Of a stretch of 64,000 nt of DNA, positions 24,201-27,200 are shown in pieces; the stretch's first letter is position 1; each line of letters begins with the position of its first letter. The notes below the pieces were generated by a model that saw nothing but the letters and a program-made list of their open reading frames with translations, was not told the origin of the DNA and did no database searches. The position numbers and the translations under genes were made by a program. The DNA is taken from contig CAVNZM010000002.1 in NCBI GenBank assembly GCA_963693365.1, forward strand, positions 12,332,328-12,396,327, given 5' to 3'. The stretch comes from Amoebidium appalachense (taxonomy: Eukaryota > Protista > Ichthyosporea).

Positions 24201-27200
24201 GGAGTGTGTGTGTGTGTTGGGGGGGGGGGGGGGGGGGGGGGGGGGGGGAGGAGGGGGTATGGTGTACGTGCCTGGTTCTAATCATTAGTGTGACATGATT
24301 CCATTATGCATTAATACATGGAGAGGAGGGAATTATCACAGCTTTTTGTCTTGGGCCCTGCTCGTTCTCTCATCAACCCCCCCCCCCCCCCCCCGGGCAC
24401 CTCTTCCCCCCCCCCTTCTCCGGGCGTCTTCTTGAAGCCTTTTATTCTTGTTTTTTTTGGTGCAGAATGAAACGTCGAATTGAAGACTTCAGACTGCAGA
24501 TTAAGCAAGGAGGCCTCCTTCTTCCCGGAAAGTAAGCCGGGGGGAGGGGGGGGGGGGAAGGGGGGGGAGGGACGGAGAGGGGGGGGGGGGGGGGGGGGGG
24601 GTGGCGGAGAGGGGGGGGGGGGGGGGGGGGGGGGTTGAATGCGGAACACGGTACGAAGTACGCATACACGATGAGAAGCATGGTGCAGGACACGTGCAAA
24701 GGCAAACATTCAAGTATGCAACATCAGCCATGCGCACAGTATGCGTCATAAGCAGAGCCCATCCTCAGGGAGGGCCCAAGTCATCAATTGCGTCTGAGTT
24801 TCGACCCCTTAGCCCTCGTATATACGACTCTCCAACTCAGACAGCAGCATCAACTGAACTTGGGAGGGTCAACCCGTCTTGATCAAAGACGATTATGCAA
24901 GCAAGGTGAGCAAAACGGTGAAGATGTGTGTGCAAACTAAAGCAGTGCAGCGAAAAATGTGTATGTGCTTACAGATGCACGATACAGGCAACCATGCCCG
25001 GTTGCATGGAAGTAAAGCGGTCTCCACAGTGGTCTGTCCTGAAAGGACACCTCTGAAAGAAGACTGGGGGGGTCTGAATGCGGAACACGGTACGAAGTAC
25101 GCATACACGATGAGAAGCATGGTGCAGGACACGTGCAAAGGCAAACATTCAAGTATGCAACATCAGCCATGCGCACAGTATGCTTCATAAGCAGAGCCCA
25201 TCCTCAGGGAGGGCCCAAGGAGGGGGGGGGGGGGAGTAAAACGTACGGGCTCCTGCCATGTCTGCAGAGACGTTCAATACGACGGTTGGAATTTTGATCT
25301 CTAGGTGCTCGGCAGTTACAAATTGCAGCGCCTGTGTGTGTGTGTGTGTGTGTGTGTGTGTGTGTGTGTGTGTGTGTGTGTGTGTGTGTGTGTGTGTGTG
25401 TGTGTGTGTGTGTGTGTGTGTGTGTGTGTGTGTGTGTGTGTGTGTGTGTGTGTGTGTGTGTGAATGCGCGTGCGTGTGCGCGCATGTGTGTGCGTGCATG
25501 AGATGTGTAACAGGCGTGTCAGTGTGTGTGCGCGTCCGAAAACATGGTGTGTGTGTTTGTGTATGTGTTTTAGCACACGCGTGAGCGTGTGTCGAATTTG
25601 TGCACATAAAGATACCAGCCGGTGTGGCCACAAGCATCCACATGTCAAAAATACATTCCCCTTCCCTTGGGCCAGGCATTTCCTGTTAAGATATTCTCAT
25701 AAAAAGAAGAAATATCTTCCAAGTCTTTCGTTCATTGTCTAAACAACGTGTAACTGGTGAAGGAAGGGCAAGGTAAGAGAGAGCAATACAGATAAACACG
25801 CAGGCACGCAGGCACGCAGGCACGCACGCACGCACGCACGCACACACACACACACACACACACACCTCTATTCTTGCCTGCAACCATTTGTCCGCCTCCT
25901 CATCCCCATTGGCTGCCTTGGCAAACACGTGGTCGTACATCTGACACAGACTTACGTAAGCAAAAACACCTGACACAGACTCACGTAAGCAAAAACAACT
26001 GACACAGACTTACGTAAGCAAAAACACCTGACACACGCTTACACAAGCAAGGACATCCAGTGGAAAATGAACGACAAAGGAAACCAGCCAGTCTAGGCGT
26101 GTAAAACATCTACCCCTGTAAGCATTTTTTTTTTCTTTTTTTTTTTTTTTTTTTTTTTTGTGGGGGGGGGGGGGGGGGGGGGGGGGGGGGGGGTTTGAAT
26201 GCGGAACACGGTACGAAGTACACATACACGAAGGACACATGCAAAGGCAAACATTCAAGTATGCAACATCAGCCATGCGCACAGTATGCGTCATAAGCAG
26301 AGCCCATCCTCAGGGAGGGCCCAAGTCATCAATTGCGTCTGAGTTTCGACCCCTTAGCCCGCGTATATACGACTCTCCAACTCAGAAAGCAGCATCAACT
26401 GAACTTGGGAGGGTCAACCCGTCTTGATCAAAGACGAGCAGGGTTGCTTATGCAAGCAAGGTGAGCAAAACGGTGAATATGTGTGCGCAAACTAATGCAG
26501 TGCAGCGGAAAATGCGTATGTGCTTACAGATGCACGACACAGAGCAACCATGCCCGGTTGCATGGAAGTAAAGCGGTCTCCACACAGTGGTCTGTCCTGA
26601 AAGGACACCTCTGAAAGAAGACTGGGGGGGTTTGAATGCGGAACACGGTACGAAGTACGCATACACGAAGGACACATGCAAAGGCAAACATTCAAGTATG
26701 CAACATCAGCCATGCGCACAGTATGCGTCATAAGCAGAGCCCATCCTCAGGGAGGGCCCAAGTCCGGGGAGAGAAAGCAAGAATGAGGTGAAAAATTAAA
26801 GGAAGTCCCAAGAGAATTGGGAAGGGGGGGAGGGGGGGGGGGGGAGGGCAGGGAGGGGACGAAGGAACAGACTGCTTCTGTATGTTGTGTAGGGGGGGAA
26901 GGGGGAAGGGGCGCGCACCTGCACACACGCACGGACGGACACACACCCACACAACCCCCGCCCCTCCCCCCCCCTCCCCCCCCCCCCCCCCCCCCCCCCC
27001 CCCCCCCCCCCCCCCCACACACACACACACCTTTGTGCAGAGGTGCTTTTCAAGGGCCTCTATGGCGTCATCCACATCATTCCGCCAATCAGGATGCCCT
27101 TGGAACTTGGCCTCCATCGTCTGATTGGTGGAAAATCACTTAGATGATCTGCCATGCCCATCACACGGTAACACTCCAACCACATGTCTACTCAAGACCC

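Follow-up and report, generated by a model that had tools for sequence, protein, structure and literature searches.

The window, that is, the whole stretch of 64,000 nt of Amoebidium appalachense DNA that was analysed, contains several genes and a dispersed repeat, and their coordinates are collected in Table 1. Two tRNA genes, tRNA-Val(TAC) and tRNA-Cys(GCA), lie on the minus strand. The gene of 5-aminolevulinate synthase is read in several frames and is likely split by introns; the best named match of its fragment is Sphaeroforma arctica (71%), with fungi at no more than 66% and the animal rows at no more than 61%, and two EukProt entries at 72 and 71% are presumably Creolimax and Abeoforma, judging by their prefixes. 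By these identities of a single gene, an ichthyosporean host is likely. Exons of an MFS sugar transporter lie on the plus strand. Two broken frames carry CCGNGK and YPLLF motifs, which we take to be those of Helitron proteins, and a further frame of 277 aa ends in a CxxC motif; neither this frame nor the two broken ones have a Pfam match. When 24 of the 194 listed ORFs were scanned against Pfam, only aminotransferase and sugar-transporter matches were obtained; a reverse transcriptase (RT) family match was found in none of the 24, and no autonomous partner was seen among them. The output of the tandem and direct repeat finder in the window is dominated by microsatellites.

A profile search of the window for the repeat gave 19 rows, 13 of them at E<0.001, and these 13 matches, all on the minus strand, form 11 insertions. 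Two of the 11 consist of a unit of 437–441 nt with a partial copy of about 140 nt at its 5′ side, and this partial-tandem, pseudo-LTR structure with a fixed 3′ end and 5′ truncation is that of Naiad/Chlamys-type Penelope-like elements. The 3′ end lies within 13 nt of a run of at least six G in 10 of the 11 insertions, while 7.5% of random points fall within 15 nt of such a run; the 5′ end lies within 3 nt of one in seven of the 11. That is to say, insertion is biased toward simple repeats such as (C)n. It was also observed that all 11 insertions (between 8762 and 49443) have the same orientation, and that 65% of the long G/C runs are so oriented (0.65^11 ≈ 0.009). An ATG-started frame of more than 85 codons is absent from both full units, and an array of two full units, the mark of the tandem type I hammerheads of non-LTR retrozymes, is absent from the window. 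The unit or a part of it was found in 20 of the 24 listed sequencing runs, under six organism codes and none of them listed as RNA, with 8,429 and 4,647 contigs on the unit in two runs and 17 and 11 in two others. Head-to-tail joints occur among these contigs, including one from 26633 to 26197; such a joint is present in one run that is merely guessed to be RNA, and likewise in DNA runs. The loose contig ends include B-like forms which retain the GAAA block and are variable beyond it. The carrier, a high-copy non-coding repeat with C-run targeting and partial-tandem structure, is likely a non-autonomous Penelope-like element, and the Penelope-like carrier proposed in a sequence-only reading of this DNA gains support from the partial-tandem structure, the 5′ truncation and the C-run targeting.

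Table 1. Features of the window, copies of the repeat and parts of the predicted ribozyme in the copy at 24.7 kb.
Feature	Positions	Strand	Remarks
tRNA-Val(TAC) gene	3016–3090	minus	
tRNA-Cys(GCA) gene	3584–3657	minus	
Two broken frames	14633–15935	minus	CCGNGK and YPLLF motifs
277-aa frame	40346–41179	minus	ends in CxxC
5-aminolevulinate synthase gene	50815–52700	minus	several frames
MFS sugar transporter exons	61738–63350	plus	
Decayed partial copy	8762–8877	minus	
Subfamily-B-like fragment	9533–9598	minus	starts just after GAAA
Subfamily A copy	10033–10370	minus	5′-truncated; full domain; G16.2 → U (10233)
Solo partial copy	18826–18973	minus	starts at joining-helix strand
Decayed partial copy	21458–21545	minus	
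Decayed partial copy	22768–22852	minus	
Decayed partial copy	23608–23714	minus	
Whole insertion	24636–25219	minus	441-nt unit (24636–25076) and 5′ partial copy (25077–25219, pseudo-LTR-like), between G/C runs
Second full insertion	26196–26764	minus	437-nt unit and partial copy; domain 26292–26452; hairpin 26417–26439; predicted cut 26379/26378
Decayed partial copy	34168–34281	minus	starts near block C
Subfamily B copy	49104–49443	minus	complete domain 49188–49341; predicted cut 49270/49269
Inserted hairpin and closing helix 5′ strand	24871–24895	minus	damaged by 10-nt deletion in the 24.7 kb copy
Detached 5′ strand of helix II	24865–24870	minus	from G10.1 (24870); two double changes in subfamily B
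Segment at position of Eckert's joining helix	24858–24864	minus	from covariation and alignment
Block S: helix III strand, GUU, helix I strand	24830–24843	minus	predicted cut 24834/24833, from hammerhead register
S–G linker, 21 nt	24809–24829	minus	palindromic hairpin 24816–24827
Block G: helix II strand, GAAA, helix III strand	24791–24808	minus	GAAA 24802–24799
Joining-helix 3′ strand, 2-nt linker, helix I strand, CUGAGGA, extra U	24761–24781	minus	CUGAGGA 24768–24762
Closing helix 3′ strand	24747–24760	minus	inserted after CUGAGGA-U

On the minus strand of 24748–24900, CUGAGGA, GAAA and GUU are read in hammerhead register, with the coordinates and pairings that the sequence-only reading had given. 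In the copy at 24.7 kb, C3 corresponds to 24768, A9 to 24762, G12 to 24802, A15.1 to 24799, U17 to 24834 and G10.1 to 24870, so that the whole conserved core (CUGAnGA, GAAA, UH, G10.1-C11.1 and A15.1-U16.1) is present together with helices I–III in register. This copy belongs to subfamily A, and the copy at 49.2 kb (49188–49341), with an identical core, to subfamily B; G10.1-C11.1, A15.1-U16.1 and a non-G at position 17 are retained in both. Helix I has 4 bp in A and 3 bp in B, as had been stated, helix II has 6 bp in both, and helix III has 9 bp in A and 13 bp in B, with the G-U pairs that determine the strand as minus, also noticed before. A lesion is present in all three subfamily A copies carrying the domain. 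The copy at 24.7 kb indeed lacks 10 nt in the region of the closing helix; the copy at 26.3 kb, described earlier as complete at 26292–26452, has a private change at 26387 which shortens helix III to 7 bp; and a fourth near-complete copy, additional to those of the earlier reading (10033–10370), has G16.2 changed to U.

The blocks follow each other 5′ to 3′ in the order S-G-C with two pseudoknots, which is the reversed order NUH-GAAA-CUGAnGA that had been claimed, and the cyclic order of CUGAnGA, GAAA and cleavage site that characterises hammerhead types I, II and III is not found. The order S-G-C is type SGC, for which cleavage was shown on metatranscriptome RNAs (Eckert 2023, PMC10085705). 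The earlier suggestion of a non-canonical topology must be divided accordingly: the reversed order is already published and validated, and what goes beyond print is confined to the split core and the setting in a genomic retroelement. The element shares with type SGC its geometry, the U after CUGAnGA and the GUU triplet, and the 7-bp joining helix of subfamily A recurs in three rows of the published alignment (PMC10085705 supplement). The CCCAAGU/ACUUGGG helix of the earlier reading corresponds to Eckert's stem I-II joining helix, which bridges the distal ends of the two stems through 7 bp and shows one double and one single compatible change between the subfamilies.

The difference from type SGC lies in block C. 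In the variant alignment of Eckert, the joining strand, a short linker, stem I, CUGAnGA-U, a GACC-like stem II and the joining strand follow one another consecutively; known alignments allow only 1–2 nt between CUGAnGA and its stems, and it is assumed there that they are not separable beyond this (PMC10085705). Insertions in the hammerhead core of just 1–2 nt are also what the available text of Perreault 2011 (PMC3088659) describes. Block C is whole in type SGC, whereas in the Amoebidium element it is broken: the closing helix and hairpin, whose insertion between A9-U and G10.1 the sequence-only reading had recognised, separate CUGAGGA-U from the stem II strand. The GACC strand beginning at G10.1 covaries with the block G strand, which bears out the remote helix II strand proposed before, and in subfamily A it lies 102 nt upstream of C3. 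In addition, both strands of the Amoebidium element connect helix III with the joining helix, unlike type SGC, and its S-G linker of 21 nt in A and 18 nt in B forms a hairpin, while the linker of type SGC is about 3–4 nt, typically 3 nt. The element is outside types I–III and departs from one defining assumption of type SGC. No description of SGC hammerheads beyond Eckert was found in the literature searched, and none of a break between A9 and G10.1; according to the part of PMC13725137 that was available, Weinberg 2015 (PMC4509812) is cited for variants with additional helices, which could bear on novelty.

Evidence for the fold comes from the comparison of the two subfamilies. Once A and B are anchored on the core, they have 26 pairs in common, which belong to helices I, II and III and to the 7-bp joining helix. 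Ten of them are changed, and nine of the ten remain paired, five through double changes distributed across helices I, II, III and the joining helix, while the core is identical, which agrees with the covariation that had been noticed between the copies at 24.7 and 49.2 kb. The sole broken pair is the last (fourth) pair of helix I. The simulated P was 0.0001–0.0014 with the changed positions fixed (overall at most 0.0015) and at most 0.0002 under random placement. In a four-row alignment, with two helix I pairs counted, 98.1% of the cells pair, compared with 28–49% when the partners are slid, and this value was matched by 5 of 500 shuffles. The identity of A and B in four segments of the domain is 92, 70, 65 and 82%, and in the flanks 55 and 57%. 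The closing helix and the inserted hairpin are invariant across the aligned copies and thus gain no covariation support. For subfamily A, the variant table lists 23 rows, which fall on 22 of 444 positions, and no variant at the 13 core positions, a result which is uninformative by itself because less than one was expected there. On every available sequence test, the domain is a real, selected RNA fold that is hammerhead-like.

A four-piece descriptor allowing any order (helix I at least 3, II at least 5 and III at least 6 bp), with thresholds chosen when the element was already known, was run on both strands of the window, where its sole matches are the copies at 24768, 26313 and 49208; no plus-strand hammerhead was found by it, and the CUGAnGA sites elsewhere in the window have no partner blocks. 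The same descriptor matches 48 of 469,861 dinucleotide shuffles of the unit. These shuffles, the covariation P and the recurrence of the same layout in unrelated Naiad families argue strongly against a chance resemblance within a structured repeat, which is barely credible even when the tuning of the descriptor and the number of phased subfamilies, just two, are allowed for. The prediction that standard descriptors would miss the element also held, for no hammerhead family is among the 90 Rfam matches of the window at E≤1; 26190–26770 has a single, unrelated match at E≤10, and no ribozyme family matches at any copy. Pattern matches in metagenomes (58) and viruses (2) were dismissed as chance, because a complement for helix III was present in 0 of 60 and the best BLAST E was 0.079.

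Taken together, the minus strand of the likely non-autonomous Penelope-like repeat carries, with good probability, a predicted double-pseudoknotted S-G-C hammerhead with two extra helices between A9-U and G10.1, which would cut its own RNA after GUU. Instead of having a split core, the element may be an ordinary type-SGC ribozyme with a 2-nt insertion, in which the bases that directly follow CUGAGGA-UG (G10.1 at 24759) make helix II, the remote strand serving as an off-switch. The local strand makes six pairs in A, fits the 1–2 nt rule of Eckert and is unchanged between the subfamilies. But in B it makes only four contiguous pairs, two of them G-U, and its duplex energy is −5.6/−2.3 kcal/mol (A/B), compared with −9.4/−7.3 for the remote strand; moreover, it is the remote strand with which the strand of block G covaries, and in the accessible passages of Naiad ends the bases after CUGAnGA pair as the closing helix instead. 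An ordinary SGC core is accordingly quite improbable.

The energetics speak against easy folding of the active form. The folding z-scores are modest, at −2.5 (A) and −1.2 (B) on the minus strand, and −2.0 (A) and −1.0 (B) on the plus strand. In all four copies, the nested folds compatible with the active form lie 6.0–14.7 kcal/mol above the predicted minimum; competing pairings in the nested folds mask CUGAGGA, and the nested ensemble of the copy at 26 kb assigns probability 0 to both helix III and the joining helix. The gain from free duplexes is only about 7–9 kcal/mol for helix II and about 4–5 kcal/mol for helix I. Since nested folding favours other structures by 6–15 kcal/mol, activity may need a dimer or a protein. 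It was observed besides that the flanks of CUGAGGA can form a local hairpin hiding the core (26300–26322 and 49195–49217, minus strand), predicted in the subfamily A folds, and that the 5′ arm of the inserted hairpin pairs either locally or over G8-A9 (0.56 in B). In these models, the two alternative pairings are possible built-in off states.

For the split-core hammerhead the following course is proposed. Helix III and the joining helix would make up one rod. The GUU/helix I strand would lie in its tip loop together with the helix II/GAAA strand, and CUGAGGA at its base together with the detached strand of helix II. Tip and base would dock via helices I and II, the pairings supported by covariation, whereupon the core would form and the RNA be cut after GUU. 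The distances from G10.1 to U17 (37/36 nt in A/B) and from A15.1 to C3 (30/30 nt), that is, the strands linking tip and base, are kept, with helix III lengthening from 9 to 13 bp. By our own estimate of helix lengths, such linkers are easier to reconcile with an extended rod that docks on another rod than with a fixed U-turn. Because a single molecule would have to make a sharp U-turn in order to dock, it is likely that two units of a tandem transcript would dock with each other (a head-to-tail dimer) or that the partner RT protein would help; the dimer docking of rods itself has about an even chance of being right. The SGC RNAs with zero linker pose a similar geometric puzzle (Eckert 2023, PMC10085705). 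Cutting would free unit-length RNA from multimeric or read-through transcripts, possibly to be circularised afterwards. An autonomous RT-endonuclease of Naiad/Chlamys type might then prime on G-rich target DNA at the C-run of the element and, by copying more than one unit, give rise to the unit-plus-partial insertions.

The S-G linker contains a perfect palindrome of 10–12 nt whose sequence differs by subfamily (24816–24827, 26362–26371, 10214–10223 and 49255–49264), and the loop of the inserted hairpin contains a palindromic UGAUCA in both subfamilies (24879–24886, 26424–26431 and 49314–49319); from their sequences, both are possible starters of dimerisation. Such features also bear on another arrangement, in which pieces from neighbouring units or molecules come together in the canonical order and no knotted core exists. 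It would be favoured by the 10-nt palindrome of differing sequence in the linker of both subfamilies, by the existence of tandem junctions such as the joint from 26633 to 26197, and by the dimeric hammerheads known in Penelope-like elements from the available parts of PMC4209133 and PMC6765202. Nevertheless, helix III and the joining helix covary inside one unit, and a dimer of rods retains the SGC wiring and still requires the break between A9 and G10.1. The upstream partial copy was also considered as supplier of block C. In the nested-only model, the closing helix then has a probability of about 0.5 and the joining helix one of 0, and because of the latter this supply is unsupported and counts likewise against the cross-unit arrangement, which is very improbable.

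Whether the fold cuts at all must be asked as well. The fold could be real and selected without cutting, or with cutting incidental, and serve as a binding or pausing handle for the RT of the partner element. The 5′ ends of 8 of the 13 matches lie at model positions 234–249, near block C and the joining strand, and not at the predicted cut, which is about 60 nt further upstream; conservation is highest in the inserted domain (35 of 38 columns); and hammerhead mutants had no effect on insertion of the anole Poseidon element in vitro, that is, ribozyme cleavage was dispensable for one Penelope element, according to the portion of PMC11167929 that was available. These points fit a handle. The core nucleotides, on the other hand, are kept in A, in B and in the Naiad ends, which counts against a pure handle, as it would not need them, and this role is considered unlikely.

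The comparison with known elements supports the split-core hammerhead and widens its range. In the available parts of Craig et al. 2021 (PMC8557442), Naiads and most Chlamys elements are without canonical hammerheads, eight half-core cases (HHR_half_core) are flagged, and no split-core fold is described. Motif searches of its supplement, covering the matched passages rather than a full scan, were read by eye: the split-core layout is readable in three near-identical Acropora Naiad ends, in two Octopus Naiad ends (names taken from the file order) and in three further passages of the Naiad file, and the other matched passages are coding matches, canonical-order cores or unresolved. In these passages the Naiad ends share with the Amoebidium element the layout of detached strand, S, G and C as well as the closing helix and hairpin. 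They differ in that Naiads are autonomous, found in animals and often (TA)n-targeted, and in that their S-G linker is short and their triplet GUA or AUC, whereas the Amoebidium element has a long linker and GUU. As far as these passages go, the split-core layout is not limited to the Amoebidium genome, and published Naiad sequences contain it unrecognised; by the same layout, the element would be the ribozyme that Naiads were reported to lack.

Chlamys elements, according to the same partial source, target (C)n and have non-autonomous pLTR forms. Elements such as MRC1 share the partial-tandem pseudo-LTR structure, the 5′ truncation, the (C)n targeting and a non-animal host, but no ribozyme is described for these elements there; the likeness to the Amoebidium repeat is one of structure, and the split-core layout was not seen in the Chlamys-file passages matched by the motif searches. 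Penelope-like elements and non-LTR retrozymes also contain minimal type I hammerheads which form dimers. As described in the accessible parts of PMC4209133 and bioRxiv 10.64898/2026.07.22.740005, these share with the Amoebidium element a short non-coding tandem unit near the 3′ end of a Penelope-like element, the extra base between 9 and 10.1 and a likely need for partner RNA or protein. In contrast, they have the canonical order and a short palindromic helix III, while the order of the Amoebidium element is reversed and its helix III has 9–13 bp. That Penelope hammerheads often require dimers or protein is also found in the available text of PMC4209133, PMC6765202 and PMC11167929. Within the portions of the literature that were available, Naiad-hammerhead papers give no description of the split-core fold, nothing relevant on ichthyosporean Penelope elements was found, and PMC8370743 and PMC10162972 contain nothing that bears on the element.

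A broader view can be advanced only tentatively, and we regard it as rather doubtful: the ancestral ribozyme of Penelope-like elements with an N-terminal endonuclease, kept from unicellular holozoans up to the animals, may be a split-core, four-helix-junction, non-circularly permuted hammerhead, which as an obligate head-to-tail dimer would cut only multimeric transcripts and so gate retrotransposition, and which would be the first natural hammerhead with its core strand broken between A9 and G10.1. As for the predicted ribozyme itself, no SGC RNA had been reported in genomes of known organisms (PMC10085705), and the element, a eukaryotic genomic repeat, would bring non-circular permutation, known from environmental RNAs whose hosts are unknown, into eukaryotic genomes. 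To the Naiad cases it adds a likely non-animal host, a non-autonomous carrier targeted to C-runs, a longer rod and a palindromic hairpin in the linker. The predicted split core contradicts the published assumption that CUGAnGA and stem II are inseparable, so existing descriptors would miss a whole family of ribozymes, and it offers a testable account of why Naiad/Chlamys elements appeared free of hammerheads. Moreover, a compact 160-nt construct with natural compensatory variants makes cleavage, dimer dependence and the role of the ribozyme in Penelope-like transposition open to experiment. Finally, the base of the inserted hairpin, GCUC/GGGU (26417–26439), is found again in the Craig 2021 supplement, in the Acropora Naiad ends and in one further Naiad passage, and this shared sequence suggests a conserved tertiary contact.
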